IMG/VR virus record: IMGVR_UViG_3300020042_006411
Span: 1-29,356 of that record
Strand: one strand, 5' to 3'
DNA: 29,356 bases
Source: a virus
Lineage: Duplodnaviria > Caudoviricetes
The translations under genes and the position numbers were made by a program. The notes beneath the pieces are model-generated. The model was given only the letters and a program-made list of their open reading frames with translations. It was not told where the DNA came from and did no database searches. Each line of letters begins with the position of its first letter. The first letter of the stretch is position 1. Of this stretch, positions 4,706 to 29,356 are shown one piece after another.

Positions 4706-5605
4706 ATGGCTACTATTGATACCTTCTACCCAACGATGTTCCAGACATCGTTCGACCAAGTTCTACAGCAGATGGATTCCCGTTTGCTTGGCTCCATTAC
4801 TCGCGCCGATTTCACTGGCAAGAAGAAATGGTTCAACCTCCTGAATGACAGCGAGGCACAAGACATTCTTACCCGCAAAGGCGACACTCCAGACGGCGAG
4901 TTTGACGGCTCCAAGTATTGGCTTACCCAGCGCCCAAAGGAAAAGGTTACGACCTTCGACGAATGGGACAAGCACTTCCTTGGCACCATTGTTCTGCCAA
5001 CTTCTGACGAAGTTCAAAGCCACGCGATGGCCTTCAACCGCGCCACCGATGACGTGATCATCAGCGCTTTTGATGCTACCCGCTACATTGGCGAAGACGG
5101 CACTACGACTGACAGCTTCCCAGCTGGTCAATCTATCGCTTCAGGCTATGTTGAAACTGGTTCTGATACTCCATCTGGTATGACGCTCGCAAAGTTGCGC
5201 CGCGCTAAGTATCTCATGGATCTTAGCGAAGTGCCTGATTCCGAGCGTTACATCGTTATCGGTGCAAAGCAGGAGCAAGACCTCCTTCGCGACACCAACC
5301 TGACAAGCGCTGACTTCAACACGGTCAAAGCTCTGGTTGATGGCAAGGTTGACACCTTCCTCGGATTCAAATTCCTGAAGTCTCAGCGTCTGCCAGTTGG
5401 CACCGTTTCCGGTGTTGCTGACATCCGCAGCTGCTTCGCCTTCCACAAGTCTGCAATCAAGTTCGCCATGAGCGACCGCCAGACCCGCATGGACATCCTG
5501 CCACAGCGTCGTCACGCCCTCCAGATCCGCTCGACCATGATGCTCGGTGCCGTCCGCACTGAGAATGAAAAGGTTGTTCGTATCTACAGCGACGAAACTC
5601 CATAA
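4706..5605 (+). CDS. Major capsid protein
   Basis: 299 aa; LQQMDSRL start, AMAFNRATDDVIISA, TSADFNTVKALVDGKVDTFLGFKF, GAVRTENEKVV end; follows the scaffold and precedes a terminator. Confidence 0.92.
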   Translation: MATIDTFYPTMFQTSFDQVLQQMDSRLLGSITRADFTGKKKWFNLLNDSEAQDILTRKGDTPDGEFDGSKYWLTQRPKEKVTTFDEWDKHFLGTIVLPTSDEVQSHAMAFNRATDDVIISAFDATRYIGEDGTTTDSFPAGQSIASGYVETGSDTPSGMTLAKLRRAKYLMDLSEVPDSERYIVIGAKQEQDLLRDTNLTSADFNTVKALVDGKVDTFLGFKFLKSQRLPVGTVSGVADIRSCFAFHKSAIKFAMSDRQTRMDILPQRRHALQIRSTMMLGAVRTENEKVVRIYSDETP

Positions 5606-5617
5606 CCTGAACTGATC

Positions 5618-5645
5618 GGGGCGGTGTAAAAACCGCCCCTTTTTT
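5618..5645 (+). terminator. Intrinsic terminator after the capsid gene
   Basis: GGGGCGGT-GTAAAA-ACCGCCCC followed by T6. Confidence 0.85.
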
Positions 5646-5672
5646 AAACCTTTACCCTCACAAAATACTCTT

Positions 5673-6149
5673 ATGGCTGCTCTTACTCCAACAGATACAT
5701 TCTACCTCGGCCAAGTCGCCGCACTCCTAGACGGTTCCGAACGTCCGACAAAATCACCGCTTCAAGGCGGCACGCTTCACAGCATTCGCGTTAGCTACGC
5801 TCTCACCGATGCCGAAGCTACCAATGATACACTGAATCTTTGCTACCTTCCTAAAGGTGCGTTGGTTCATCGCAACCTAAGTTACATTGAACTGATCGAC
5901 CCAGGCACTGGCACGCTCACTGTCGATGTTGGCACCTCCAGCAACGGAGACTGCTACGCGGACGGCATCGCCCTTTCCTCGGGTGGTTCCATCAGCTTTG
6001 GCTCAACCGTTGCGGGCACGGCTGGCGATCTTGCATCTTCAGTGCTTACCACCACGGATAACACGCTTGTAACGCTGACATGTGCAACTGCTAGCGGTGA
6101 TCTCGCGGGAACGATTTATGTCACCATCGTTTATTCGATCTTCAATTAA
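5673..6149 (+). CDS. Probable capsid decoration/cement protein
   Basis: 158 aa, beta-rich (LPKGALV, TLTVDVG, GTIYVTIVY); directly after the capsid gene and bracketed by terminators. Confidence 0.65.
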   Translation: MAALTPTDTFYLGQVAALLDGSERPTKSPLQGGTLHSIRVSYALTDAEATNDTLNLCYLPKGALVHRNLSYIELIDPGTGTLTVDVGTSSNGDCYADGIALSSGGSISFGSTVAGTAGDLASSVLTTTDNTLVTLTCATASGDLAGTIYVTIVYSIFN

Positions 6150-6169
6150 CCTTCCCGTTGGTTGACCTC

Positions 6170-6208
6170 GGGAGGCTCCTTGTGTATTAAGGGGCCTCCC
6201 TTTTTCTT
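6170..6208 (+). terminator. Intrinsic terminator
   Basis: GGGAGGCTCCTT-GTGTATT-AAGGGGCCTCCC followed by TTTTTCTT. Confidence 0.85.
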
Positions 6209-6222
6209 GAATCATTACCATT

Positions 6223-7098
6223 ATGGCCGCTACTGCTACAGAGATCGCAAACCTTGCAATTGCCCATCTTGGTGGAAGGGCGCTGACTGCGCTTTCCACT
6301 GACACGACTCAACAAGCGGCTAGTTTGCGGAAGTGGTATAATCCAGACGCAGGAACGCCAGTTTATACGGCACTTGATGAGGCATTACGGGCGCATCCGT
6401 GGAATTTTGCTACAGCTAGAAAGCGGCAAACTGTCACCTATCACACGCTAACAGGAGGCGCATCTGTTTCTGATGCAAGCGGACTCATCAAGATTACGCA
6501 CGCTGGACATGGTTATACCACAGGAGACCGTGTTTATGTAAAGGATGTGCAAGGCGTAACCGTTGCCAATGGTCAATGGTATGTCACCGTAATCAATTCA
6601 AACAACTTCACGCTCGACGAATCTGTTTTTGCTGGCACTTACACGGCGGCGACAGGCAGCGTCGTCGGTATTCCACAGTTTGATTGGGATTTTCAGCATA
6701 CGCCACCAACGGATTGTTTGCGCGTGATTTCACTCAATGCAGGCGGCGGGCAGATGGAAGATGCAGGCGCTGATTTTACCGTTGAAAAAGGGCTAATCCT
6801 TACCGATGAGGAGACTATCAACCTTAAATACATTCAGCGAATTACAGACGTGACCGATTACCCGGCTGATTTTGTGACGGCATTCTCATTTTTGCTTGCC
6901 TCTTGCATCGCACAAGATACACAAGGCGCATCAGGACAGGCTCAACAAATGCGGCAGTTTTACGAAAAGGCAGTAGCGCCACCTGTTAAAGCTCGCGATT
7001 CAAACGAGGGCAAAGCGCGGCGCATTCCACCGTTCAACGATTCACAAGTCATCTCTGCCAGAATGGGCGGTTACTGGACTGGCGGCATAACTGAATAA
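6223..7098 (+). CDS. Tail tubular protein A / head-tail adaptor (T7 gp11-like) with inserted beta domain
   Basis: EIANLAIAHLG, ALRAHPWNFAT, P.DCLRVI, LKYIQRITD...PADFVTA motifs; insertion HGYTTGDRVYVKDVQG...NGQWYVTVINSNNFTL. Confidence 0.85.
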   Translation: MAATATEIANLAIAHLGGRALTALSTDTTQQAASLRKWYNPDAGTPVYTALDEALRAHPWNFATARKRQTVTYHTLTGGASVSDASGLIKITHAGHGYTTGDRVYVKDVQGVTVANGQWYVTVINSNNFTLDESVFAGTYTAATGSVVGIPQFDWDFQHTPPTDCLRVISLNAGGGQMEDAGADFTVEKGLILTDEETINLKYIQRITDVTDYPADFVTAFSFLLASCIAQDTQGASGQAQQMRQFYEKAVAPPVKARDSNEGKARRIPPFNDSQVISARMGGYWTGGITE

Positions 7099-7102
7099 TC
7101 TC

Positions 7103-9823
7103 ATGGCTCAATTCCAAACGATCAAATCAGTGTTCAACGGCGGCGAGATGTCGCCTATCATGGACGGGCGCACGGACTCGGAGAAATACGCGACTGGGTG
7201 TAAGCTCCTAGAAAACTTCATGGTGCGCTCATACGGTGGCGCATTTAAACGCCCTGGAACTCGATTCGGCGCGGCTAATTCAGACGTGACTGGATGCGTC
7301 CGATTAGTTCCTTTCCGTAGATCAACAAGCGTTAACTTTGTTTTGGGATTCAAAACAAACGCCATAAAGGTATGGTCGTATTCATCGGGCGCTTTTACGC
7401 TCATTACAACTTTAACAACGACTTACACTGAATCAGAAATTGCTGATTTGCATTACATTCAGCTTAACGATGTAATGTATCTGACGGTGTCCACCAAGCA
7501 TCCTAAGATCATTACACGCGCCAGTGATGGCACTTGGTCATTCACTGACGTGCCTTTTCAGTTTGCTCCCGCCCTTGATCCTCCAAGTGATGGCGTGACA
7601 ATGACGATTGAGTATGATGCTGATGACTGGGTGGCTAATAAATCACCAAGCTATGCAGTCGGCGCATTTGTCCTTTATTTAAACGATCTTTATCGGTGCA
7701 AAACGTCAAACGGTGACGCTGCATTTACCTTGGCGAAATGGGATAAGGCTACTTACAAGCAGTCATGGAATGTTGGCCAAAGTTATGTTGCTGGCGACAT
7801 TACTGAATATTTTGGCAGTAACTACTTTTGTATTACCGCGCACACTTCAGATACGTCTAATAGGCCGGGAACTGGCGCTCAATGGGTGCTAATTACGATT
7901 ACAGATTACAGGCTCATTTCTAGCTCTACCGTATTTGACGCTAATGAAGTTGGAAGCACTTGGTTATTGTCTCCAGGCTCAAGTGGAAGAATTGCAACTG
8001 AGCCTATTGCCACGGCTCCAGCGACGACAACCACTGCGGCTATTTTCATTCAAGGTTCCTACGTTGCGCGAACAAGCTGGGCAGTTGGTGTTGCACCGGC
8101 TGGAACTATTATTCAGCTTCAAGAATCTCTTGATAGGATCAATTTTACGAACATTCGCGAATGGTCTATTAGCGGCATTCTTGATGGAACAATTAGCTAT
8201 ACGGCGGAGGCTCCAAACACTGGCGGATGGTATCGAATGGTTGCCATTCGAACGGGAACAAATTCAAATTCGTCAAGCATGACCATTGAGCCAATTTCTG
8301 GCAAATTGGATATTCCCTTTCAAATTCAAAGCTACGTCTCGACAACTCAGGTCAGAGGTATTCCAAAGCTAGCCGTTGATTCTCTTATTCCTAATGAAGT
8401 CGTAGGTTTTACTTTTCCGGTCTGGCGAAAGGGTGCGTTTTCTGTAACTCGAGGTTATCCAAGAACGTGCGCTTTCCATGATAACAGGCTATTTTTTGCC
8501 AGCACGGATTTGTATCCTACTCGGATTTGGGGCAGTCAGATTTCGGATTTTTACACATTCCTGACCGGATCTCTGGACACTTCCGCATTGGATTTAACGC
8601 TAGCAGCAACGCAGGCGAATGTTATTCAATGGCTTTCCAGCTTCAAACGCACGCTTGTGATTGGCACAACTGGCGAAGAGTGGACGATGGATAGCGGCGA
8701 CCAGGATAACGCATTGACGCCAAGCAACGCAAGGCTTCGCAGATGGAGCCGATATGGATCATCAAAATTCCAACCCGTGCTTTCAGGCGATGGTTTGCTT
8801 TGGCTTACCCGAGATAACCGATTGCGCGAGTTTGCCTATGTCTTTGAACGTGATGGATACTCAGCGCCGGAAATGACATTGCTGGCAGAGCATGTCGTTT
8901 GCCGTTCTAATGTTATTCAGATGTTTTACAGCCAATCTCCAGATCCGGTGATATGGCTAGTTCATGCAGATGGAACGTGGAGCGGATTCACCTATGATCG
9001 AGAGAACAATATTACCGCATGGCACCGTCACCGCTCACAGATGTCATGTAAGTCAATGTGCAGTATTTATTCGTCGTCATCTGCAGCTGATTCTTTGATG
9101 TTTTTGATGAATTACCAAGTGCTTTCTTTAGAAAGCATTGATGGCGAAGATATGCGAAACGCTATGACTTCAGCCAATCTTGGCGCTCGCGTTAATTGCA
9201 TGGATTCGTGGATACAGCCTACCTCTGGCAATATTAGCGTTAGCGGAGGCAATACAACTTTCACCAATCTTGCCACTGTTAACCCGCAACTCGCAGCCAA
9301 TGATAACCTTGTTTTAATTGCTGGAGATACGGCATCTAAGTCGGATGGATCGCCGCATATAACTTCTATTACCGGAGGATCAGGGACGGCTGTTTTTACA
9401 GGTCTGGCAGTAAATACTGCGGCTCCTCAATATGTAGGCCTTTATTTTACCGCTTACCTTGTCCCAAATCGTTTTGAGATTCAACTTGGAGATGGAACTG
9501 CTCAGATGCGTAAATGGCGCATTACTCGCGCATCATTCCGTCTTTTCAGGTCATATCACGGTTATGTGTGGCCAAAGATTACCCAAGATGATTTCACTAA
9601 TTACTCTCGCATCATAGATGAAACAGATGAGTTTCCAATTGCGCCGGATGAGGCTGTGCAAGATTACTTTGACAGAACAGGGCAAACGCTCCCGCAATCT
9701 TTGAATTTTGACTGGGGCCGGGCTTGTGACATTGTTATTGCTTCGCGTCATGCCGTGGCATTCAATATCCTTGGAATGATCTTAGAGATCGAAGTTGAAG
9801 GAACGTCTGGCGCAGGAGCTTGA
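7103..9823 (+). CDS. Tail tubular protein B / nozzle (T7 gp12, P22 gp10-like) with CBM5/12-like repeats
   Basis: FNGGEMSP...GRTD.EKY..GC..LENF.V..YGGAFKRPGTRF, GYPRTCAFHDNRLFF, LVIGTTGEEW, AWHRH motifs. Confidence 0.9.
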   Translation: MAQFQTIKSVFNGGEMSPIMDGRTDSEKYATGCKLLENFMVRSYGGAFKRPGTRFGAANSDVTGCVRLVPFRRSTSVNFVLGFKTNAIKVWSYSSGAFTLITTLTTTYTESEIADLHYIQLNDVMYLTVSTKHPKIITRASDGTWSFTDVPFQFAPALDPPSDGVTMTIEYDADDWVANKSPSYAVGAFVLYLNDLYRCKTSNGDAAFTLAKWDKATYKQSWNVGQSYVAGDITEYFGSNYFCITAHTSDTSNRPGTGAQWVLITITDYRLISSSTVFDANEVGSTWLLSPGSSGRIATEPIATAPATTTTAAIFIQGSYVARTSWAVGVAPAGTIIQLQESLDRINFTNIREWSISGILDGTISYTAEAPNTGGWYRMVAIRTGTNSNSSSMTIEPISGKLDIPFQIQSYVSTTQVRGIPKLAVDSLIPNEVVGFTFPVWRKGAFSVTRGYPRTCAFHDNRLFFASTDLYPTRIWGSQISDFYTFLTGSLDTSALDLTLAATQANVIQWLSSFKRTLVIGTTGEEWTMDSGDQDNALTPSNARLRRWSRYGSSKFQPVLSGDGLLWLTRDNRLREFAYVFERDGYSAPEMTLLAEHVVCRSNVIQMFYSQSPDPVIWLVHADGTWSGFTYDRENNITAWHRHRSQMSCKSMCSIYSSSSAADSLMFLMNYQVLSLESIDGEDMRNAMTSANLGARVNCMDSWIQPTSGNISVSGGNTTFTNLATVNPQLAANDNLVLIAGDTASKSDGSPHITSITGGSGTAVFTGLAVNTAAPQYVGLYFTAYLVPNRFEIQLGDGTAQMRKWRITRASFRLFRSYHGYVWPKITQDDFTNYSRIIDETDEFPIAPDEAVQDYFDRTGQTLPQSLNFDWGRACDIVIASRHAVAFNILGMILEIEVEGTSGAGA

Positions 9824-10930: not shown

Positions 10931-12511
10931 ATGGCACGCATTCCAATCCTTCAAGAACCTGGGCAGCTTAACACGGGCAACCAGACGATCCGCACGCCCG
11001 ACCTTCCAGCCGTCACAAACGCCAGCGTGGGCAAGGCAATCGGCAATTTAGGCAACGTGATGTTCGACATCGCGGAGAAGGCCAAGCGCGCAAATGACGT
11101 GACCAAGCTCACGGAAGCTAGCCTTGCGATGAACAAAGCGCAGATGGATTTTGCGACGTTTCAGCAATCGCCAGAAGGGCAGGATGAAAAGCAGTGGCTT
11201 CCAAAGTGGCAGAGTTTGCAGAACGACATCAAAGCTCAATTTGATCAAGCTGAATTGACGCCTGAAGCAAGAATGCAGTTTAACGACAGGCTTTCAAACT
11301 GGGCGACTCGCGGGACAATTCAAGTTCAAGCTAGCGCCATCAAGCAGACGGGGCAAAGAATGGAGCAGAGCTTTGATAATGCCGTTAAATCTAAAGATTT
11401 TAACGCAGCTAGACAGGGCGTTGATGATGCCACAAAAGCTGGGCTTATATTACCAGAGCAAGCGCAGGCAAAGCGCTTGTTTATTGACTCAGCTGAAAAG
11501 GATTCAAAATGGAATAGCTACATTTTACAGCGTGAACGTTTGGCCGATCCTGCATCAAGAACGCAAGAAAGCATTTTTCAGCTTGAGCAAATGCTTGACG
11601 CTTCCCGTGATTCCATGGAGCCGGAGCGTTATCAGCTTGAAATTGATAATCTTAACGACATGAAGGATGAGACTTTTGTTTATCAAGAGATTCAAAAGAA
11701 TCCTGAGCGAGTCGTAGAAATGATGAATAATCCAGATTTTGCGCCAAGTCTTAGCGCTCCACAGCAGCGAGAAAGAATTAAAAATCAAGCAATTGCACGC
11801 ATTGAGGAAATGCAGATGGAAGAACAGCGAGCCGTGATGAATGGAATTCTAGGCGGCAGCATTCAAAACATGAAGCAAGCGGAAACGCTTATGCCGCGCT
11901 CTGATGCTATTGCAAAAGCCAAGATTCAGAGCGTGTTTGACAAAAAGCCACCGACTCAATACGAGGCTTCAATCCTTAAGCGTGCTCTAGAAAAGGCCGT
12001 GGAAGAATACGATCCAACAAACGATCCTGAAGATGCAAAGACGTTTCAGATCGTTGACACAATCAACCGTCTCAATCTTTACGACGAAAAACTGACAAGT
12101 TCATTGCGTGAGAAGTTTTACAAAAAGCAACAACAACGCACGCCACCATCTCCAATCGAAAGTGAAATTGCCAATCATAAAAAATTTCTCGATTACGTTT
12201 ATGAGCCTAAGCTTAAAGCGCTTATGGATGAAGACACAAAAGAGGTTCCCGTTGATAAACAAGCTGAGTTCAGGTCTTTACTTTCCATTCGCGATCAATT
12301 AGCCACTGATTTTGAGCGCATGGTTGAATCGGGAGAAATTAAGACACGCGAGCAAGCTCGTAATGCATCGGTGCGGATGTTAGCGGAACCATATGCCGAT
12401 CAGGTTATGGCTTATTTTCGTTATGCGCCATCATCGGAAGGTAAGAGTGGACAAATTCAACTAACGCCAGAAGAAATTCAGCAAATCGAAAAACAACGAC
12501 TTTCAAAATAA
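10931..12511 (+). CDS. Internal virion / ejection protein (T7 gp15-like position)
   Basis: 526 aa, helical; MARIP start; lies between the gp14-like gene and the giant protein, with TAATG coupling to the latter. Confidence 0.7.
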   Translation: MARIPILQEPGQLNTGNQTIRTPDLPAVTNASVGKAIGNLGNVMFDIAEKAKRANDVTKLTEASLAMNKAQMDFATFQQSPEGQDEKQWLPKWQSLQNDIKAQFDQAELTPEARMQFNDRLSNWATRGTIQVQASAIKQTGQRMEQSFDNAVKSKDFNAARQGVDDATKAGLILPEQAQAKRLFIDSAEKDSKWNSYILQRERLADPASRTQESIFQLEQMLDASRDSMEPERYQLEIDNLNDMKDETFVYQEIQKNPERVVEMMNNPDFAPSLSAPQQRERIKNQAIARIEEMQMEEQRAVMNGILGGSIQNMKQAETLMPRSDAIAKAKIQSVFDKKPPTQYEASILKRALEKAVEEYDPTNDPEDAKTFQIVDTINRLNLYDEKLTSSLREKFYKKQQQRTPPSPIESEIANHKKFLDYVYEPKLKALMDEDTKEVPVDKQAEFRSLLSIRDQLATDFERMVESGEIKTREQARNASVRMLAEPYADQVMAYFRYAPSSEGKSGQIQLTPEEIQQIEKQRLSK

Positions 12512-15500
12512 TGCCAATCACTCGACCATCTACACAAGAGGACGCCGACAATCGACTTCGAGAAGCCTTTATTATTCAGGATTTTGGCGCTCTTGGTGGC
12601 GAAGTGGAGTCATATCCACTTCCAGACAGGAATGCGCTTTTGTATTCTTCGGCAACTTCGGCATGGGCCGAGCGAATTCTTGGCGCTCCAGCAAATCCTT
12701 ATCATCCTGGATGGCAGGGACAAAAAGACGGCATTGTCAGAAGTTACTTTGGCGAGCGTGAAGCGAAAGATGTTTCTGATGAAGATCTTTTTGGCAAAAT
12801 TGCCACCGATTACAGAGCGCAAGAAAAGATTGCAAACGCTGCCCGCATTGCTGCGGCTCGCGGTGAATCGTGGCTTGGCAAGTTTCGTGAGGTTGAGACA
12901 CAAGAAGCCGGATCAATAATTCCCGGCAGAATGACAAATTACCTTGGGCTTGCTAGGGCTGCTCACGATGAAATGGCCGCAAAGGTAAATCCATACCGAA
13001 ACACGATTAAAGCCGTGGCGGATATGGCGCGAAACATTGACACATCAGCGGAAGGCATGGACTGGGGCGCAATGGCTAGCGAGCTTGTAAAGATTCCCAA
13101 AGAGGATCGTCCATACGTTCTTGAAGCTCTTTCTCTGCAAACTCCAGGAGAGTCTAAAGCTGGTGATGCCGAGCGAATCAAAACGGCTTTTGTCCGTGGA
13201 ATGGAGCGTTATCTTGATACGGCCGTAAGCTCATTAGAGACGGCAGGAGAAAGCACAGCTGGCGAGTTTTTACGGCAGTCGTATGGATTTGATGTCGAAG
13301 CGCAAACGCCAGAACAAAAGGCGCAACGCGCTGATTTTCTCGATCTTCGCGACGACATGCGCGACATCGCTACTGGAAAACTTGCGCCGTTGAAAGCGGT
13401 AAAGATTGCAGGCATGAACATTGCCGGGGCTGCTGAAATGCTGCCAATGACGTTGGGGTCTTTTGTGCCTTACGTTGGCGCTGCTGTAACGCTTGGCAGT
13501 TTTCAGCGGTCAACTTATAACGACATCAGGCGGAGCAATCCTGAAATGTCGCGTGATTCGGCAAATGCCATCGCTACCGTGTCAGCGCCGTTTCAAGCAA
13601 TCACGGAAATTGCGTCAGATCGTTTTCTTTTCGGCAGACTTCCTAATCTTAAACGTGCATTTACTCAGCCAATTTTTAGCGCAACTGGGGCGCTTGGCAT
13701 GTTTGCCACACGGGCGGCAATCGGCACAGCTACGGAGGTCAGTGAAGAGTTTATTCAAGGCGTTACACCGCTTGCTATTCAAGACCTTTCCAAAGCTCTA
13801 GGTCAGGATCTTCCTGGCTCTGATTGGAACGGATTTCTTGGCGAGTTTGCACAAAGCTTGCCTGAGCTTATTTCGACAATCTTGCCGCTCGCTATTGTTG
13901 GCGCTGGAACTGGTCAGTTGTCAGATTTTCGTGCTGGTCGTCAACTTGCGCGCTCGCCTGACATGCTGATAGCTGCTCAGTATTCGCCAGAATCTGCCGC
14001 AAAAATTAGCGAGCTAGCTAATGCTGGCAAATGGAGCGAAGCGGAAGACGCTATACGTTTGGATTGGGCGAAGATTAATGCAAAAGGCGCTGACATGGCG
14101 CAAGTAAAGGCTACGGCAGAACAACGCATTCAAGCTGCTGAACGTATAAAAAGCTTACAAAGAGAGCAAGTGAGCGCCGAAGGATTGCAAACAACCTCGC
14201 CCGATTTCACTGCAAGCGTCACGCGCTCGCCTACAGGCTGGCAAGTAACGACAGGCGAGGGCACTATCATTCCTGTGGATTCTGCCGAAGCTGCAAATCA
14301 AATTTATAGCAAGCTTCGCCAAGTCGGAAGCCAGCAAGAGGCCGATGCGCTGGTAAGCGTGATTGACGGCTATTACGAGCAAGGCAGGCAGGCTGAAACT
14401 GTATTCACTGGCGAGACTGTTCAAGCGTCTGACGTTGAAGCGGTTGGGGTCGTGGCTACTCGGCGCGATGCTGGCGGGGCTATTCTTTCACAGCGCCAGC
14501 TTGGCCCTCAAGCTCTTGAAACCGTCCGTGCAGAAGCGGAAGTTGCGGGCATCAAGTCGGGCACTCAAGGGATTTTCGCGCACATTAACGGATCGAACGA
14601 GGTCTTCCCAATGCGCGTGGCCAATGGGGCTAAAGAGATCTTTCGCAGGATGAACCTCTACAAATCACAGGCTGAAGGACAGCCGCAGGTGATTACGTTC
14701 CTGCATGAGAATTTTGAATCAACGTGGCGATTGGGCATGGAAAACGGCACGTTCTCAGATCAAGAAACACGCACGGCAATGCGCGCGCTTTTGCCTGCTT
14801 TTGAAGGCGTGACGACACTTAATGCCGAAGAGGCTCAATTCATTGACAATCTACGCACGCTAGCAAGCGGCAAGGGCAATGAAACCATGCTGCGTGAAAC
14901 CGTGTCGGAAATGGTCATTCGTGACGTGCTAGGACGTGATCGACAAGGCCTTGCCACGGGCATGAAACCTGGTTCAATCTCTCGCGCTATTGAGGCGTCT
15001 GTCATGGGCGCGAATACTCAGGAAGAAGTCAGCGCGTTAAAAAGCATTTTGGCTGCAATCAAGGCATTTACCGCCTACCTCAAAGGCGTGTTTGGCACCG
15101 TTGACGCCATCACCAAAGCTCGCGATGAAGGCAAGCTCGGCGAGGAATACGATACGTTTATCAACAAAGTCCTCGGCATCGACGAGGTAAAGCAGATGGA
15201 AGGGCAGGCGATAGACGAGGCGAAGGCGATGCTTGGCGTTGATGAGGAAGCGCAGGCTGTGATCGACGCTGGAAATATGGCGTTTTCCATTGCTCCTCTC
15301 CGTGCATTTACAACCAAGGCGGAAAAAGAATACGCATTTGGTGATGGTCGTTACACGCATCCTGTCACGCTCACGAATGGCACGCGGCTTTCCGGTGAAA
15401 CCTTTGATTATAAATGGGGCAGCAAGATTGAAATTGGCAAAGCTGGCGGCATTCCGACTTTCTTTGGTTACACTAAAAACGGCGATGAAATCACCATTCA

Positions 15501-18500
15501 AGCGCGTGACGTTCGCCCTGATATGGTTGCAAGTTCGCGTGACAATAACCGTTCAGCGAACGATCTTCGTGATCGTTTAATGATGTGGCACAACAAAGCT
15601 AAAGAGCAGGGATTTAATTTCTTAGACGCCGGGAATATGGCGTTTAGCATCTCGCCCGTCACTCCAGAGCAGGATGCCGAATACCTTGCGGCAGTGGAGT
15701 CGGCGATTGAAACATTCTCCGACCTATCGCCCAAGCAGGCCGAGAATTTGCGCGACCTACTTGAAGCGGAGGGATGGGCGATAGAATATGAAGGCAGTAA
15801 CGGGGCGCTGGTTTACACCAGCGCCGAAGATCTTCAGGAAAGAGGGATTCCTCGCGCAGTTATTTATGCTGATTTTTCCAGTCAGGCAGACCCCCAATCA
15901 TTGGAGGATGCCATAGATTATCTTATTGCTGGCGGCTTCATTGACGGAGATTCAAGAAAGGTTGCTGAAAGCTATTGGAGCAAGGTTGTCCCGGTAGTTC
16001 CATCCAAGAACGCTATTACAGGTCTGGATTACATTGCAGAAAGCGATAAGGGGCCATTCCCAGTTCAGGCGCGTGATTTAGCATCTAAATACCAACTCAC
16101 GCCAGATCAGCAGCGCCAGCTTGTGGAGGCGCGTAGCATGGTTGCCTTTGAGGTTTTGAAGAAAGACTTGATTGCAAGTGCCGACATGGTTCCGATAAAG
16201 AGAGTAGGGTCCATGGCTGAACTCCGCGCTCTGGTGGAAGCCAGTTATCCATCAATGCCAGCAGAGCATGTGAGGGCTGCCGTTGAGAAAGCGTGGCAAC
16301 GCAATCAGGGAGATTATTCGTTTCTCGAAGGAAACGACTTTAATATCGCCAATGCTGTAGTGCGACCCTATGCCAGACACAATTTCACCAATTACGATTC
16401 AATCATTAGGCGGGCGGGCGGAAAGAGCGATGCACGTGAAGCCACATTTGATGAGGTTGAGGGCCTTTTAAGTGAGTGGCACGCCAACCCCGCTCGATTC
16501 TCCATCTCGCCCATTCGCAATCTTAACGAACTCAGCGATCAAGTGGAGCGCAACTTTGCGGAGAATCCAGCGGGCGCGTTAGAGGTTAAGTCCAAAGTTA
16601 TTCGCCAGTTTGCCAAGCTTGCCGATAAATGGAGCAACGAGCGATGGACACCGCAAGGCAACAAGATCAGGCCGATTAGCGAAAAGCGCACGGTTAAGAG
16701 CTTGGACAAGGAACAGGCAATGCGGCAGGCGCAGCGTGAAGTTGAGCTTGTAAATGAAGGCATGGACAAGCTGACGCCAAACACGATAATGGCGTATTCT
16801 GAAGGTGTTGGCACACTGGAAGACGATCCTCTTGTGAAGAAGATGCTTCACGACAATGGAAAGCTCATGTCAAAAGCTACGGCTGAACGTGAAAGTCGAA
16901 ACATCAAAGATCAATACGAGGATGCTGGCTGGATTCCGCCGTCCTGGTATTCAGGCGGGACAACAATCACAACGGTTATCGTCACCCGCGCAGATGGATC
17001 AAATGAGAGCTACGACGCTAGGAAAGTGCCTGACGAAGTGAAGTCGGAGATTTCAAACGGAGCGGCTAAGGCGGTCATCAAAAAGCATCGCACTCCCGCA
17101 ACGGGCGGCATCATGCCTGACGTAATGGCGAATAATCTCGGCTTTGATTACGCTTCTGAGATGTGGGCTGCTTTGGAGTCGTCTATCAAATCGCATCGTA
17201 ATGCTAAGGCCGATTATGCCAAAGCAGAGGCCGCAGTTAAAGCGGTCGAAAAAGCAGCGTTTGAGCAGGCACGCCAAGAAGCACAAGCATGGCGCGACGA
17301 GACAGATGCAATGCAGAAAGAGGACTGGTCGCCGCGTGAATCGCTTGTGCGTGACCTCATCACCCTCGAGGCTATTGTTGCCATGTTCCCGCAGGAGATT
17401 CGTGGCAAGATCGGCGGATTTGTTACCCTAGCACGCAAGGCTAGCGAGGCGGCACGTTTGAAGGTGCTGCAACGCCAACTTGAACGTGGGCAGGAGTTGC
17501 TGGAGAAGCATCTCAAGGAGCAGTATGGAACGGCGGTTGATAAATTGCTTGAACGCTATCAATCAAAGCGTGATTCAAGCGGGCGAATCTCCGGCAAGAT
17601 TCTTTCCACAGCAACGGAGCAAGTAGACTATGCTGCCGAGTTTATTGACTTAGACATTGTAAGCCAAGCCAAAGAGCAGGCCGCGCTAGAAAAGCAGGTC
17701 GAGGAATCGGAGTCTGCTGAAGAAGTGCAAGATGCACTTACGAAACTTGGCATTGCTCGCTTGTTTGAAGTCTGGGATACAAAAGACTCTGCATCCCGCG
17801 AGTCCGCTTTCTTGTGGCTAAACGAGACAATTGAGCAGGGCAAACAGGGCAAGAAGCTACTTGATGAAGAGCGCAAGGCGTTTCTCGATGACATGCGCCA
17901 GAGCGGGCAAGCGTCAATTCTGCAAGGTGACGAGTTGAATGCTGCCGTGGCTGACAACCTTACAAATTTGAACAAGGGCGTGATGCGTCGCGCCTTGCTC
18001 GGTATGCGTGGAGTTTTGTCGGAGTCGTTATGGACTACCCTCCAACGTCTTGAATTGATCTTTGGCGAAGACTCTAAAATCTTGGATTACTTCTCAAGCA
18101 AGATCATCAACGCGGCGAATCTTTCCACCGACATTAAGCGGATGGTCGAGGCGCAGAAGAAAGAAGCGCTTTCCATTATCTTCAACTCTGACAGCAAGTT
18201 TCAACACGCTCGCGGCATCGCTGAATTGCAGAAGCTCAAAGACTCGGGAATCATGATTTCCAAAGTCACAAAGAAGGAAATCAAGCTAGACATCGACACA
18301 CTGACTAAGCTCGCTGACGGCACGATGGACGCGAAGACGGCAGGGCTTGAACAGGCCGAGGTTGACGCCGCGCTTGAAGAGTTTGCCGCTAACGCACGCA
18401 AGCGCACGGTGACAATTGAGAAAGTGACGAGTCGAGCCGCTCCAACATCTCGCACGATGTCGGAGACGCAAGGCATTCAGTGGTGGCTATGGTCGATGCA

Positions 18501-20127
18501 GGATGCGAGTCGCAAGCAAATGGAGCGCGATGGCTGGGACGCTGACAGTTTCGCACAGCTTGAAAAGTTTCTTTCGCCAGAAGCTAAGGCGCTGGGACGG
18601 TGGATTTCTGGCAGCTATCAAGATGCGGCTGGCATGATTGATCCGATTTATCGTAGGCTGTTCAATGCACCACTTCCGCGCATTAAGAACTATTCACCGA
18701 TCTATAGGCGCAACATGAACGCGGGCGGAGAGGTGATGGACTTGGACAGTTCAGACATGAATAGCGGCCTAGCTGCTGGCTTTACAAAGTCCCGCGTGAA
18801 TACGACGGCTTCACTTGTGGAGAGTGACGCGCTTGCCGTGTTCTTGGCTCATTGGGAAAACGTCTCTCATTGGGTGGCGCACGCTGAAATGATGCGGGAT
18901 ATGAAGGCTATCTTGTTGGATAAAGATACTGCCGTGGCAATCCGTCAGAAAAAGAGTGAGGGTTATCTGCAACGGCTCAAACAAGACATCAGCACAATTG
19001 AAAAGAACGGCACGAACAATGCAAACGAGCTTGTGAATATGTCGCGTTTCTGGCGCTGGCTTATGCAGTATCGAGCTTATAAAGGCTTGGCGTTTCGTAT
19101 TTCTCCCATTATCAAACAAACTCCAGCGCTGCTAAATCCACTCTTGGCTGACGTGCCTGCTCACAATTACATGATGGGGCTTTCTCGCGCATTTATTGAG
19201 CCGCAGGCATTTGCTAGTGAAGTTTCCGCAATGTGGAAATCTGACATTATCCGCCGTCGTATTGAGTCGGGTTTCTCCGCTGAATCTCGCGTTGCGATGC
19301 AGGGTTCAAGCATGACCGGATCTCAAGCCATTCTTGCTATGCAAGCAGGCATGATGCCTATGGGCATGGTTGACGGTGGGTGGACTGCCCTGGGCGCTGC
19401 TATTTCCTTTGATTATTATCGGCGCGGATACATGCGTGAAAACCCGCAGATGACGCCAGAGATTGCAGATGCCAAGGCCATTGCACGTGTTGAAAAGATG
19501 ATTGCCACGTCGGCGCAACCTTCCGACGTTTATGCCCGCGCTCTTTACGAGCGTAATGGCAATGCGTTTATGCGTTCAATGTCAATGTTTGTATCTGACC
19601 AACGTAAGGCTCTTGCGATTGAGCTAATGGCAATTCGCAAGCTGGCAACGGGCAAGTCTAAAAACAAATCGCTGGACGTTCAGCGGGCGTTTGTGGCTCA
19701 TATCGTGCAAGCTGCTGTTTCGCAGGTAATGGCTGGTGTGATTGCTTCGCTATTAGGTGACGATGAAGATCGTGATCGCGAGTGGAGCACAGATCAGTGG
19801 ACGCTTGCGCTTACACTTGGCCCTGTAAATGGGCTATTTGTAGCTGGTCGATTGATCGACAAAGGCCTCCGTTCGATTCTTGGACTTCGCGTGTTTCCGA
19901 GTGATAACCTTGCCGATAAGGCATTTGTGGACATTTGGCGCGCTGGCAAAAATATAGATGATATTTTTAGTGATGATCCTGAAGATGTGATTAATGAAAT
20001 TGACAACTTATCTGCCGCCGCTGGCGCTGGCTTATCCGCTGCATTTGGCCCCGCCGCTGGCGCTGTCGATGTCGGCGCTAACGTGCTACGCGAAGCCCGC
20101 AAGATTCAAGATCGGCTAAGTGAGTAA
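12511..20127 (+). CDS. Giant internal virion / large polyvalent protein (gp16-like position)
   Basis: 2538-aa uninterrupted ORF; Gly/Ala hydrophobic segments with ATEVSEEFIQG, FSI(A/S)P linker repeats, DAEYLAAVES motif, helical C-terminal region. Confidence 0.85.
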   Translation: MPITRPSTQEDADNRLREAFIIQDFGALGGEVESYPLPDRNALLYSSATSAWAERILGAPANPYHPGWQGQKDGIVRSYFGEREAKDVSDEDLFGKIATDYRAQEKIANAARIAAARGESWLGKFREVETQEAGSIIPGRMTNYLGLARAAHDEMAAKVNPYRNTIKAVADMARNIDTSAEGMDWGAMASELVKIPKEDRPYVLEALSLQTPGESKAGDAERIKTAFVRGMERYLDTAVSSLETAGESTAGEFLRQSYGFDVEAQTPEQKAQRADFLDLRDDMRDIATGKLAPLKAVKIAGMNIAGAAEMLPMTLGSFVPYVGAAVTLGSFQRSTYNDIRRSNPEMSRDSANAIATVSAPFQAITEIASDRFLFGRLPNLKRAFTQPIFSATGALGMFATRAAIGTATEVSEEFIQGVTPLAIQDLSKALGQDLPGSDWNGFLGEFAQSLPELISTILPLAIVGAGTGQLSDFRAGRQLARSPDMLIAAQYSPESAAKISELANAGKWSEAEDAIRLDWAKINAKGADMAQVKATAEQRIQAAERIKSLQREQVSAEGLQTTSPDFTASVTRSPTGWQVTTGEGTIIPVDSAEAANQIYSKLRQVGSQQEADALVSVIDGYYEQGRQAETVFTGETVQASDVEAVGVVATRRDAGGAILSQRQLGPQALETVRAEAEVAGIKSGTQGIFAHINGSNEVFPMRVANGAKEIFRRMNLYKSQAEGQPQVITFLHENFESTWRLGMENGTFSDQETRTAMRALLPAFEGVTTLNAEEAQFIDNLRTLASGKGNETMLRETVSEMVIRDVLGRDRQGLATGMKPGSISRAIEASVMGANTQEEVSALKSILAAIKAFTAYLKGVFGTVDAITKARDEGKLGEEYDTFINKVLGIDEVKQMEGQAIDEAKAMLGVDEEAQAVIDAGNMAFSIAPLRAFTTKAEKEYAFGDGRYTHPVTLTNGTRLSGETFDYKWGSKIEIGKAGGIPTFFGYTKNGDEITIQARDVRPDMVASSRDNNRSANDLRDRLMMWHNKAKEQGFNFLDAGNMAFSISPVTPEQDAEYLAAVESAIETFSDLSPKQAENLRDLLEAEGWAIEYEGSNGALVYTSAEDLQERGIPRAVIYADFSSQADPQSLEDAIDYLIAGGFIDGDSRKVAESYWSKVVPVVPSKNAITGLDYIAESDKGPFPVQARDLASKYQLTPDQQRQLVEARSMVAFEVLKKDLIASADMVPIKRVGSMAELRALVEASYPSMPAEHVRAAVEKAWQRNQGDYSFLEGNDFNIANAVVRPYARHNFTNYDSIIRRAGGKSDAREATFDEVEGLLSEWHANPARFSISPIRNLNELSDQVERNFAENPAGALEVKSKVIRQFAKLADKWSNERWTPQGNKIRPISEKRTVKSLDKEQAMRQAQREVELVNEGMDKLTPNTIMAYSEGVGTLEDDPLVKKMLHDNGKLMSKATAERESRNIKDQYEDAGWIPPSWYSGGTTITTVIVTRADGSNESYDARKVPDEVKSEISNGAAKAVIKKHRTPATGGIMPDVMANNLGFDYASEMWAALESSIKSHRNAKADYAKAEAAVKAVEKAAFEQARQEAQAWRDETDAMQKEDWSPRESLVRDLITLEAIVAMFPQEIRGKIGGFVTLARKASEAARLKVLQRQLERGQELLEKHLKEQYGTAVDKLLERYQSKRDSSGRISGKILSTATEQVDYAAEFIDLDIVSQAKEQAALEKQVEESESAEEVQDALTKLGIARLFEVWDTKDSASRESAFLWLNETIEQGKQGKKLLDEERKAFLDDMRQSGQASILQGDELNAAVADNLTNLNKGVMRRALLGMRGVLSESLWTTLQRLELIFGEDSKILDYFSSKIINAANLSTDIKRMVEAQKKEALSIIFNSDSKFQHARGIAELQKLKDSGIMISKVTKKEIKLDIDTLTKLADGTMDAKTAGLEQAEVDAALEEFAANARKRTVTIEKVTSRAAPTSRTMSETQGIQWWLWSMQDASRKQMERDGWDADSFAQLEKFLSPEAKALGRWISGSYQDAAGMIDPIYRRLFNAPLPRIKNYSPIYRRNMNAGGEVMDLDSSDMNSGLAAGFTKSRVNTTASLVESDALAVFLAHWENVSHWVAHAEMMRDMKAILLDKDTAVAIRQKKSEGYLQRLKQDISTIEKNGTNNANELVNMSRFWRWLMQYRAYKGLAFRISPIIKQTPALLNPLLADVPAHNYMMGLSRAFIEPQAFASEVSAMWKSDIIRRRIESGFSAESRVAMQGSSMTGSQAILAMQAGMMPMGMVDGGWTALGAAISFDYYRRGYMRENPQMTPEIADAKAIARVEKMIATSAQPSDVYARALYERNGNAFMRSMSMFVSDQRKALAIELMAIRKLATGKSKNKSLDVQRAFVAHIVQAAVSQVMAGVIASLLGDDEDRDREWSTDQWTLALTLGPVNGLFVAGRLIDKGLRSILGLRVFPSDNLADKAFVDIWRAGKNIDDIFSDDPEDVINEIDNLSAAAGAGLSAAFGPAAGAVDVGANVLREARKIQDRLSE

Positions 20128-20432
20128 ATATCAGCAAGCACAGCCTTTAGCCTGTCGATCTTGACGGCCTGTTGTTGGATCGTCTGAACCTTTCTGGCTG
20201 TTGCTATTAGGTGAGACTCACGGGCTTCCTGTAGACGCTCTAGAAGCTCGGCGTTGGCTGCTAGTGCTGCGTTGAGTTCGCGCTCCAGTTGGCGTGCAAA
20301 GTCTGCTAAAACTATGTCTCCGTAAACTATCTTGGAGTCTCGCTTAACATAGATGTCAATGCAGCTATCATCGCAGTCGATTAATGTTAGCTCTGCCTCT
20401 GAATCGGTTTTAGGTGTTGGTGTATCGCTCAT
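20106..20432 (-). CDS. Island gene A (MSDTPTP... ADFARQLERE, coiled coil)
   Basis: 108 aa; ATGA-coupled to gene B; its 3' end overlaps the 3' end of the giant gene by 22 nt. Confidence 0.8.
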   Translation of the reverse strand: MSDTPTPKTDSEAELTLIDCDDSCIDIYVKRDSKIVYGDIVLADFARQLERELNAALAANAELLERLQEARESHLIATARKVQTIQQQAVKIDRLKAVLADIYSLSRS

Positions 20433-20755
20433 GGTTTGGTGAAGGGGTAAAGTCTGGCGAGGGCGTGATTCTGCCTATCATCAAGTAGCCAAGACGCATC
20501 ACTCGGAGGATCGTCAGCAAAGGAATGAAAAACCTCCCTGATAGCCTCGCGCATGGCGGTGTTATCAGCTAAAACCTTGTCTAGAGCTTCGTTGAGGGAC
20601 GATCTAGCTCTTTCACTACTTCTAAACAAAGAAAGCGCAGTATCTCGCTCGCGTTCTAGTTGTCGGGCAAAGTCTGCCGAAACAGGATCATTTGGGCAAG
20701 TTTTTGAGCGTTTGTGCCTTTTTCTCTCTGCGTCTGTTCTCGGTGTATCGTTCAT
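20429..20755 (-). CDS. Island gene B (MNDTPRTD... ADFARQLERE... NTAMREAIR... LARLYPFTKP)
   Basis: 108 aa; ATGA-coupled on both sides; shares modules with genes A, C and D. Confidence 0.8.
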   Translation of the reverse strand: MNDTPRTDAERKRHKRSKTCPNDPVSADFARQLERERDTALSLFRSSERARSSLNEALDKVLADNTAMREAIREVFHSFADDPPSDASWLLDDRQNHALARLYPFTKP

Positions 20756-21081
20756 GGTGTGATGAATGGTTGGAGTTTGGCGAGGGCTTGTTGGTCTGGA
20801 TACGGGGATGCCTTGATGGCATCATGCGCCTTTCTGATAGCCTCGCGCATGGCGGTGTTTTCATCCCTGACTTGGCGCAAGTGCTCAGCGTTGCAGCTTG
20901 CATCTAGCTCCATTTTAAGGTTGGCAATCTCCGCAGCCGGATCAGCCATGCCAGCGCAAGCGTTGACGCATTCTGCTATTCGGCGCTCATCTCCAGCGCT
21001 GCCGTTGCGGGTTAGCGCAAGATCGAAATCGTAGTTATAATTCCACGGCTCGCCGTAGTCGGGTGTTGGTGTAGTACTCAT
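20752..21081 (-). CDS. Island gene C (MSTTPTP... RRIAECVNACAG... NTAMREAIR... LAKLQPFITP)
   Basis: 109 aa; ATGA-coupled; RRIxxCVNACxG is a motif I recognise from small phage proteins. Confidence 0.8.
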   Translation of the reverse strand: MSTTPTPDYGEPWNYNYDFDLALTRNGSAGDERRIAECVNACAGMADPAAEIANLKMELDASCNAEHLRQVRDENTAMREAIRKAHDAIKASPYPDQQALAKLQPFITP

Positions 21082-21350
21082 GGTGTGGTGAAAGGTTGGA
21101 GTTTGGAAGCTGCTTTCATTCCGAGATTGCGTAACCTGTGACTATCATCTTGGTCATACTCCGGCATCGTGGCGATCTTAAACAAGTCGTCGTGGGCTGT
21201 TTTGATAGCCTCGCGCATCTCTTTAATCGTCGCCATGTCTTCCGCTCGAAGGTTGGCCAGTTTCAAAGCAAGCTCTGCAAGCTCGTCATACTCGCGTTGT
21301 TCGACGAGTTCGATGATGCCTTCCGGCGTGTGGTAAGGGTAGGTTTTCAT
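21078..21350 (-). CDS. Island gene D (MKTYPYHTP... EMREAIK... ASKLQPFTTP)
   Basis: Start placed at 21350 because of the ATGA overlap with gene E's stop (21347-21349); 90 aa. Confidence 0.78.
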   Translation of the reverse strand: MKTYPYHTPEGIIELVEQREYDELAELALKLANLRAEDMATIKEMREAIKTAHDDLFKIATMPEYDQDDSHRLRNLGMKAASKLQPFTTP

Positions 21351-21985
21351 TGTGCGTTTTCCTTTCGTGCTGCGAGCATTGCGTCTGCTATATCGTAGCA
21401 ATCAGCGGCAAGAAGGTCTCGATGTTCATGAGGGTTGCTTAGCCTTGTGGCTTTACCTTGAAGTGCCATCCCTGCGAACCAGTCGCGGAGGGACATGTCT
21501 TGCATGGGATTGACATCGCCGACTTGCGGAGTCCATTCTGATTTCGTTACCAAAGGCTCGTCGGCGTAGCGCCAGCCTCGAACGGTTGTCCATTTTTCCC
21601 AATTCCAATTAATCGCTTTATCGGCTGGACGTTTTCGCAAGTCTTCGCCTATACAAACTTCAACCATTGCCTCCCAATCGCAAGGCATCGGATCGCCGGG
21701 AGTGTAGCGAGTCCAAGTCTTGCCGTGGGCTTCAAAGGTTTCTGGCTCTTGCTTATCGGCTGGCACTGGCAAGCGGATGTCAGCGAAGTGGGTGTCTTGT
21801 GTTGTTAGGCAGATTGCGTATAGAAGCCAATCTCCATTTTTGCAGTATCCCGTCATTCTCACGCACCCTTCCGGCACCTCACCAGCTTCGGAAAGTGGGC
21901 GGAGTTGTGATATGTTCAAAACTTCCCGCTCACTCATGCGGTCGCAGGCAGCTTGGAGTTGTTCGTTTGTGTATGTCGTTTTCAT
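21347..21985 (-). CDS. Island gene E, mosaic protein with C-terminal MSLRDWFAGMALQG...CYDIADAMLAAR module
   Basis: 212 aa; the C-terminal module matches the widespread small phage domain MTLRDYFA...AYxxADAMLxAR; middle part HGKTWTRYTPGDPMPC...GWRYAD. Confidence 0.78.
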   Translation of the reverse strand: MKTTYTNEQLQAACDRMSEREVLNISQLRPLSEAGEVPEGCVRMTGYCKNGDWLLYAICLTTQDTHFADIRLPVPADKQEPETFEAHGKTWTRYTPGDPMPCDWEAMVEVCIGEDLRKRPADKAINWNWEKWTTVRGWRYADEPLVTKSEWTPQVGDVNPMQDMSLRDWFAGMALQGKATRLSNPHEHRDLLAADCYDIADAMLAARKENAQ

Positions 21986-21996
21986 GTGATGATTTT

Positions 21997-22032
21997 AAAA
22001 CAAAAAGGCCGACTCGGGCAAGGAGTCGGCCT
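21997..22032 (-). terminator. Intrinsic terminator in the leader of the reverse island (attenuator-like)
   Basis: Minus strand AGGCCGACTC-CTTGCCC-GAGTCGGCCT followed by TTTTGTTTT, ending 11 nt before the gene E ATG. Confidence 0.75.
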
Positions 22033-22129
22033 AATGCGGTTCATCGCAAGTTGGACGGTCACGCCTTGCCCGCGAGAACCATTTCCCTTTTATTGATCGG
22101 ATTCCTCATCGCGTCAAATTAAAATGAGT

Positions 22130-27727: not shown

Positions 27728-27800
27728 AAAGATTTCTACTTTTACACTTGCGCGAGTTTGGCGCGTGTGATTAGATGCGTTGTCATCACGACATCATCAC

Positions 27801-27983
27801 ATGAAAACCTTAAAAATTAGCGAGACATTGCACTCGCAACTACGCATCAACGCAGCCAATCAAGGCTGTAGTCTTCAGTCCCTCGCTGAGGGATTTATCA
27901 CCAATGGCATTGCAGATTTGTTTAAACGCAAGCAGGCCAAGACTGGCAATCCTCTACGCCTTCGGAAAGGATCAGCAATATGA
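27801..27983 (+). CDS. Ribbon-helix-helix-type DNA-binding protein
   Basis: MKTLKISETLHSQLRINAANQGCSLQSLAEGFI fits the Arc/CopG beta-alpha-alpha pattern; first gene after an intergenic gap. Confidence 0.72.
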   Translation: MKTLKISETLHSQLRINAANQGCSLQSLAEGFITNGIADLFKRKQAKTGNPLRLRKGSAI

Positions 27984-28532: not shown

Positions 28533-28545
28533 CATCATCACTACT

Positions 28546-29356
28546 ATGTCATCACAACTTATTACTACCGAAACAGACGTGCAAATCGCCCGTGAATCCG
28601 CAGCTTTTGAAATGCTGCAACGCCAAGCCAAGATGTTTGCCTCCGCGACTCTTGTTCCCAAAGAGTTTCAAGGCAACATTGCCAACTGTGCAATCGGCCT
28701 AAACATTGCTAAACGATTGGGCGCTGATCCGTTCATGGTCTTGCAAAATATCGACATCATCCACGGACGGCCAAGCTTTCGCGCTACGTTCTTGATTGCC
28801 ATGGTGAACGCCTCGGGACGTTTTGAGCCTCTTCAATTTGAGATGACCGAAACTGGGAAGGAGACAACTAAAGCTGTCACGTTTGAAGTCTGGGAAAACC
28901 AGAAAAAGGTTTCTCGCGAGATCAAATACACCTACACGCCGACAACTTGCATCGCCTACGCCAAAGACAAGTCCAGCGGAGCGGTTATCAAAGGGCCTCC
29001 AGTATCGTATGACATGGCAATCTCTGAGGGATGGGTAGGCAAGTCTGGCAGCAAGTGGCAAACCGATATGCGAGAATTAATGATCCGCTACCGCGCCGCT
29101 GCATTCTTTGCCAGACTCTACGCGCCAGACATTACCTTGGGCATGTTGACGGCAGAGGAAGCTTACGACATTGCAGAACGCGATGTAACGCCACGCGCTG
29201 AATCATCACCACTTTTTAAGACTCTCGCGGCAAAATCGCCGCAGACTGCACTCCCACCTGAAGTAGGCGAAAAAACAGGTAATCAAAACAGGAGTGCAGA
29301 ATCATCTTTGACTGCAGTCAAGGCCGTCACGACGCTTGATCAGGTCACAGGCAAGA
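28546..29356 (+). CDS. recT: RecT-like single-strand annealing protein (3' truncated by window; not in ORF track)
   Basis: LVPKEFQGNIANC, ADPFMVLQNIDIIHGRPSF, EGWVGKSGSKWQT, LMIRYRAAAFFARLYAPDITLGMLTAEE; open to the window end. Confidence 0.82.
   Translation, partial: MSSQLITTETDVQIARESAAFEMLQRQAKMFASATLVPKEFQGNIANCAIGLNIAKRLGADPFMVLQNIDIIHGRPSFRATFLIAMVNASGRFEPLQFEMTETGKETTKAVTFEVWENQKKVSREIKYTYTPTTCIAYAKDKSSGAVIKGPPVSYDMAISEGWVGKSGSKWQTDMRELMIRYRAAAFFARLYAPDITLGMLTAEEAYDIAERDVTPRAESSPLFKTLAAKSPQTALPPEVGEKTGNQNRSAESSLTAVKAVTTLDQVTGK

Follow-up and report, generated by a model that had tools for sequence, protein, structure and literature searches.

In T4-type phages, small accessory genes of the hyperplastic regions are shuffled by means of promoter and stem-loop units, PeSLs (Arbiol 2010, PMC2839356), which the available parts of that article describe as intergenic promoter-terminator units of about 100 bp that move whole genes and avoid chimeras. 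In the gp38 adhesin of T-even phages, conserved glycine-rich motifs lie between hypervariable segments (Trojet 2011, PMC3157838), and gp38, as that paper describes it, is a single virion gene of known function in which the order of the motifs is fixed. Here we describe a reverse-oriented array of five small genes, A to E, in a 29,356-nt stretch of DNA from an uncultured lake virus of the Caudoviricetes (IMG/VR record IMGVR_UViG_3300020042_006411; the whole stretch is called the window below). Pieces of these genes are re-assorted among relatives, and breakpoints cluster at short coding repeats, the anchors.

The array resembles PeSL shuffling, as far as the cited account goes, in that repeated conserved sequence would let general recombination add, drop and swap small accessory genes without an integrase, and gain and loss of genes at repeats are indeed seen among close relatives (L078 versus L075, L007 and L088). 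In contrast to PeSLs, however, the joints consist of coding DNA, 16-53 nt in length, situated inside genes and over stop/start overlaps, and they give chimeric proteins under one leader; units of promoter and stem-loop are absent between the array genes, which are joined by ATGA overlaps with no intergenic DNA, and the leader is single in the window. The likeness to gp38, again within the limits of the cited source, is that variable segments from a population-wide pool are re-sorted through exchange at or close to conserved coding motifs, but here several genes form an array that varies in gene number and has stackable middles and helical proteins that are not glycine-rich and have no tail PHROG match. 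The array works like PeSL and gp38 shuffling and is a member of neither: its joints are coding, of four kinds and located inside genes as well as between coupled ones, and they alter the gene number along with the make-up of the proteins. Rad52-like recombinases, which favour short, diverged homologies, drive phage mosaicism (De Paepe 2014, PMC3945230), and a study of phage domain mosaicism predicts that accessory proteins of unknown function harbour mosaicism not yet reported (bioRxiv 10.1101/2022.12.27.521992); these represent the same general mechanism and phenomenon, and neither source describes, in its accessible portions, sub-gene joints that recur within a coupled array of 80-110-aa proteins.

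Anchors and re-assortment at the array locus

A preliminary description, made from the letters of the window, held that genes chained by ATGA overlaps share repeats acting as homology points for the exchange of variable segments. On recheck, the coordinates and overlaps of all five minus-strand genes (Table 1) were exact. The 53-nt repeat was recovered at three junctions (matches of 41/53, 38/53 and 38/53; spacing 323 and 326 nt), ADFARQLERE is common to A and B (25/30 nt), and MREAI is common to B, C and D, the identical 26-mer in B and C being the longest exact direct repeat of the whole window. Base shuffles gave a longest exact repeat of at most 13 nt in 500/500 cases, 86 other genome windows of equal size one of at most 18 nt, and codon redraws with the proteins kept fixed reached at least 26 nt in 3/1000. 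The segments between the anchors had been called unrelated, which does not hold entirely, as there is weak alignment among B, C and D in their stem-and-tail halves (37% over 73 aa between C and D).

Five relatives with the same leader carry between three and seven genes at the locus (L001, 5; L007, 3; L012, 6; L075, 7; L076, 7) and differ in gene number, order and combination of modules, rather than carrying the same fixed genes. In L001, L007, L012 and L075, long flank blocks match the window at 83-94% identity, and L076 is a 2.9-kb contig showing the leader and the array end only. The tail of gene A recurs in relatives beneath heads h3, h9 and h12 and beneath the D head, the head of gene C is paired with tail t6 in L012 and L013, and the head of gene D is carried on three further tails in relatives. 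Relatives of gene E (61-349 aa) contain different subsets of the E blocks, and some end in DUF2158 instead of the RDWFAG block.

Breakpoints were scored as ends of alignments of at least 90 nt at 75 loci, with anchors defined from the window alone. Twelve of the 14 breakpoint clusters, which are not independent events, lay within 10 nt of an anchor, as compared with 37.8% of array positions (p=3e-4), and within genes 6 of 8 did so against 22.8% expected (p=0.0025). A crossover at an anchor can be followed in L088, which matches the h3 gene before FARQLERE (54/57) and gene A of the window after it (108/120), whereas after FARQLERE it matches the h3 gene's own tail at 46/120 only; L088 has the sequence of the product expected from a crossover between FARQLERE copies of adjacent genes. 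Gain or loss of a single unit is seen in L078, which equals L075 (99.75% over 800 nt and 98.5% over 329 nt) plus one 239-nt gene placed between two start anchors sharing 16 exact bases. In L007 the leader is joined directly to D, and the starts of E and D have 8 nt in common. At the sequence level, array pieces have been exchanged between distant phage lineages: G003 and the 65.5-kb phage G004 share 876 nt of array at 95.1% and elsewhere just three blocks at 75-84%, and G004 has a different replication module, with DNA polymerase A and an Enc34-type single-strand binding protein.

We consider it likely that the array is a reverse-oriented operon of small coupled genes, the heads, middles and tails of which are re-combined among relatives at short in-frame anchors of four kinds; general homologous recombination, and not a dedicated recombinase, is the most likely means. 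Recombination of this general type would join units at the anchors, and it would be compatible with a RecT-type annealase. Within one genome, a crossover between like anchors would delete or duplicate a unit, and between like anchors of co-infecting genomes it would swap units; since like anchors share a reading frame and the ATGA overlap is part of the junction anchor, the products would stay in frame and coupled.

Table 1. Features of the array and associated elements in the window.
Feature	Position	Strand	Remarks
Gene A, 108 aa	20106..20432	-	Head h8, FARQLERE anchor, terminal tail
Gene B, 108 aa	20429..20755	-	Start anchor, head h1, FARQLERE, middle m1, MREAI, tail t3, junction anchor
Gene C, 109 aa	20752..21081	-	PDYGEPW..CVNACAGM head, middle, MREAI, tail t2, junction anchor
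Gene D, 90 aa	21078..21350	-	ATG start; MKTYPY head, MREAI, tail t1, junction anchor
Gene E, 212 aa	21347..21985	-	Mosaic; PHROG 2201 match at residues 162-210
Junction anchor J1	20412..20464	-	End of B, stop/start overlap, start of A
Junction anchor J2	20735..20787	-	C/B junction
Junction anchor J3	21061..21113	-	D/C junction
FARQLERE anchor in A	20277..20306	-	ADFARQLERE copy
FARQLERE anchor in B	20648..20677	-	ADFARQLERE copy
MREAI anchor in B	20538..20563	-	26-mer
MREAI anchor in C	20834..20859	-	26-mer identical to the copy in B
MREAI anchor in D	21203..21218	-	16 nt identical to the 26-mer
Constant leader	21986..22117	-	Fixed upstream edge of array; promoter-like TTGACG at 22112-22117 (by eye), 17-nt spacer, two hairpins
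RecT-like single-strand annealing protein gene	28546..29356	+	Runs off the window; candidate catalyst

Several observations weigh against this explanation. Two breakpoint clusters, at 20134-20146 and at 20926, lie away from the anchors, and the break in the D head (21220-21223), scored as at an anchor, falls just outside MREAI in relatives without MREAI there; therefore not every joint is anchor-to-anchor. Exact identity in the anchors is frequently 16-36 nt only. The RecT allele of the window differs from that of its closest relatives, and RecT is found in 4/10 near-complete module-carrying genomes, a count to be read without a measured baseline for phages in general. Among the same ten genomes none has ERF (Rad52, 0/3 tested), and G013 has no match to RecT, AAA_24, ERF or Rad52. 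All combinations were furthermore read from assembled contigs, not raw reads, and exchange within one infection was not seen.

The reliance on assembled contigs raises the alternative that the combinations are chimeras formed across repeats during metagenome assembly. Several array variants co-occur in single runs, where they may belong to different phage species, and in L078 a single array has tails that repeat over about 150 nt. Most anchors, on the other hand, share 16-36 exact nt, which would be near or below usual assembly word lengths, identical pairings recur on separate contigs, and one of the genomes, G002, is complete and has terminal repeats. The C/B (J2) and D/C (J3) junctions of the window are reproduced with 0 differences by contigs of run X5, although X5 may be close to the source sample; J3 is covered by a piece, 21043-21233, that extends 35 nt beyond the stop/start overlap. 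A contig of X13 with 34 differences spans the B/A junction (20044-20464), and the link between the middle and tail of B is bridged by none of the contig pieces listed. Assembly chimeras are, taken together, a very unlikely source of the combinations. An X5 contig runs from J2 back to a C head, as either tandem C-headed genes or an excised mini-circle would, and a like joint is present in X6.

Recombination enzymes and persistence of the anchors

The RecT-like annealase noted at 28546 was confirmed by PHROG 561 (E 4e-68), with a Pfam RecT match (E 5e-4) that is below cut-off, and RecT may be the catalyst of the exchange. G001 and G002 also encode RecT, which in G002 is adjoined by a PD-(D/E)XK nuclease, and 4/10 near-complete module-carrying genomes have AAA_24, three of them above cut-off. 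Homology of the window to G001-G003 ends about 25-30 nt into the RecT gene, and these genomes carry a different RecT allele; the RecT gene has therefore been swapped too.

The cassette-like layout following a constant leader could also reflect a dedicated site-specific system, such as an integron, a shufflon or a diversity-generating retroelement (DGR), acting on the anchors, and in the distant phage L014 a module gene is directly followed (5203-6423) by an open reading frame (ORF) that is putatively tyrosine-recombinase-like, judged by a motif. The array had been proposed to be integrase-free, and the tyrosine integrase family PF00589 was found in 0/5 records, four of the five being near-complete; neither the resolvase family PF00239 nor the reverse transcriptase family PF00078 was found in the same five. 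The anchors are four unlike direct repeats, none of them among the inverted repeats listed for the window, and breakpoints at the anchors shift by several bases. The array has no intergenic DNA that could hold palindromic attC sites and no Rfam match, which speaks against an integron; the modules are co-directional in the arrays listed, which differs from a shufflon or other invertase system; and the lack of PF00078 speaks against a DGR. A dedicated system is accordingly most improbable.

A more serious alternative is random illegitimate joining followed by selection, in which only fusions keeping frame, helix and coupling survive and the anchors are tolerated joints rather than crossover sites. 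The location of the anchors at helix ends in the model of B speaks for it, as do the two off-anchor clusters and the D-head joint, which is not MREAI-to-MREAI. The anchors themselves give a divided answer. The five mismatches between the FARQLERE copies of A and B are all in third positions, as illegitimate joining would have it, and point to constraint at the protein level, by which FARQLERE would be kept at the start of the long helix modelled for B. The MREAI codons, in contrast, are identical in 14/14 pairs with unlike tails from the close pool (0.66 when all 241 pairs are taken), as compared with 0.66-0.89 in orthologous core genes and a codon-usage expectation of 0.37; identity at synonymous sites across unlike tails, beyond that of orthologous core genes, argues therefore for homogenisation of MREAI at the DNA level and against illegitimate joining. 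The change of parent within a shared anchor in L088 counts against it as well, and so do the four-gamete rectangles described below, which are repeatedly closed by the same pairings. Illegitimate joining seems to us unlikely, and general homologous recombination at the anchors is retained as the preferred explanation.

The junction anchor includes the ATGA overlap and an A/C-rich run, and the same motif stands at the end of 3/35 starts of G002 against 34/5422 background windows, which gives weak support to a role in translation; the junction probably serves translation restart as well. The anchors would thus persist for mixed reasons. CATCAC runs precede several early-gene starts that lack a Shine-Dalgarno-like motif (window 27790-27803 and 28533-28545; L057-L059 and L160), and are possibly a translation signature of the host.

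The wider protein family, its structure and possible function

A profile built from 15 members matched 2310 proteins at E<=0.001 among 8000 candidates scored, and 120 of these matches were listed. In the family consensus, a TPETD start is followed by a variable head and FARxLERE, then by an optional middle and AMREAI, and lastly by a variable tail with ALAKLQPF at its end, and middles are stacked in tandem at internal LERERDEA repeats. The preliminary description had spoken of proteins with variable heads; the heads do vary, but the tails and middles vary equally.

Parsing of 126/151 sequences gave 56 head clusters and 49 tail clusters in 99 pairings with 11 cycles. Under strict thresholds (99/124 proteins), 12 four-gamete sets were obtained, one of them consisting of B, P0003, P0010 and P0068. 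At a threshold of 0.8, near-identical heads were on unlike tails in 82/102 pairs and near-identical tails had unlike heads in 92/114, shares that are biased upward by the choice of proteins with the anchor profile and their de-duplication at 90%; this limits what they lend to our explanation, while the existence of the four-gamete rectangles is unaffected. The weak alignment of the stems and tails of B, C and D would also be compatible with ordinary tandem paralogues that diverged in place and kept a few conserved motifs. Such paralogues are contradicted by the near-identical heads on unlike tails, and vice versa, and by close relatives that differ in gene number and order, and they are refuted by the four-gamete sets unless those sets are assembly errors, which leaves in-place divergence with hardly any credibility.

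A heptad-register rule for the spacer between FARQLERE and MREAI was considered, the spacer being 9 aa in 53/80 parsed proteins and those of 30 and 37 aa being in register, and was rejected when only 4/18 distinct longer spacer lengths proved to be in register (p=0.25).

The model of gene B has a 58-residue helix (24-81), with pLDDT mostly above 90 at residues 31-70 and of 55-65 at the ends; the model of gene C is weak (pLDDT 60.7) and was not used. The sigma-70-like promoter, assigned by eye, and an orientation opposed to the virion genes suggest early expression of the array. We give about an even chance to the proteins being early, host-directed effectors, in which the predicted helical stem, probably oligomeric, would display variable heads and tails binding host targets, e.g. 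defence proteins. This proposal has to be set against a fold search with the B model that gave no match at E<=0.001 and against the lack of Pfam, PHROG or PADLOC matches for A-D; sub-cut-off Pfam and PADLOC matches were set aside as coiled-coil noise. No Pfam family matched more than 2/124 family members and no PHROG more than 3/124. In a search of cultured phages, B and C gave no match and the last block of E a weak one to Burkholderia phage proteins. No paper on the family was found in a literature search that did not use the motif strings and largely did not cover subscription papers and supplements.

The layout of the array proteins recalls Ea22 of lambdoid phages (Pfam PF13935), an early accessory protein that, in the available text of the cited article, consists of a short N-terminal portion, followed by a coiled coil and by a C-terminal domain differing among phages (PMC10834534). 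The relative P0061 is labelled Ead/Ea22-like by UniRef (Atlas feature score 0.83, taken as a lead only), and PF13935 matched 0/124 proteins and 0/5 genomes.

A more far-reaching reading, which we regard as tentative and rather doubtful, is that the anchors are preserved because they are recombination joints. They would then make up an enzyme-free system of diversification across unrelated freshwater phages, in which dozens of heads, stackable middles and tails would be combined into new proteins for anti-defence or host takeover, all built on a shared helical scaffold and placed behind a single constant, structured leader. The array offers a concrete route to new small phage proteins, with sub-gene pieces re-dealt at fixed coding joints, beyond the movement of whole genes. 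Many pieces in many combinations amount to a large natural protein library, and the four-gamete sets found in nature are a ready-made design for asking which piece determines the target. If the proteins do counter host defences, the array would be a combinatorial source of such inhibitors.

The constant leader and the genomic setting

The leader, with a z of -3.8, is 99-100% identical over 125 nt in the five relatives and includes a terminator-like stem (22006-22032) with a U-tract. It has no Rfam match and no second copy within the window. In the two-hairpin element (21998-22085, minus strand), 8 nt within the first hairpin are complementary to the second hairpin's loop, which makes a pseudoknot or switch possible, and the element may be a small RNA. 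The element was noted in connection with L160/L167 as well; four viral contigs match it, and an 87% copy downstream of the array in G022 shows a compensatory change in the terminator stem. A promoter-like site at 21992-22021 (minus strand) overlaps the terminator hairpin, and a start from it would fall at the ATG of E and give a leaderless message; two promoter-like sites were observed, where 2.1 would arise by chance.

The window covers 29 kb of the genome of a podophage-like virus and has connector, capsid, tail tube, internal virion, tail fibre, endolysin and RecT-like genes (PHROG), and the sequencing runs holding most of it are freshwater metagenomes. The capsid protein is 34-37% identical to those of HTVC010P-like pelagiphages. 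Assignment of a host by the capsid failed, with matches at 27-42% identity spread over many phyla. Complete genomes among the relatives are those of G001 (about 42 kb) and G002 (about 38 kb).

The array slot, on the minus strand, is flanked by a 2538-aa gene and an 88-aa gene, and gene A overlaps the end of the convergent 2538-aa gene by 22 nt. In more distant relatives the same slot is occupied by different reverse-oriented small genes. The 2538-aa gene (12511-20127) is itself mosaic in comparison with G001 and G002, matched blocks alternating with unmatched ones, and has a DUF2293 match at residues 1243-1323. The relative L058 carries a second array (7600-9085, minus strand) with E-, Y- and D-like gene types about 3 kb from the first.

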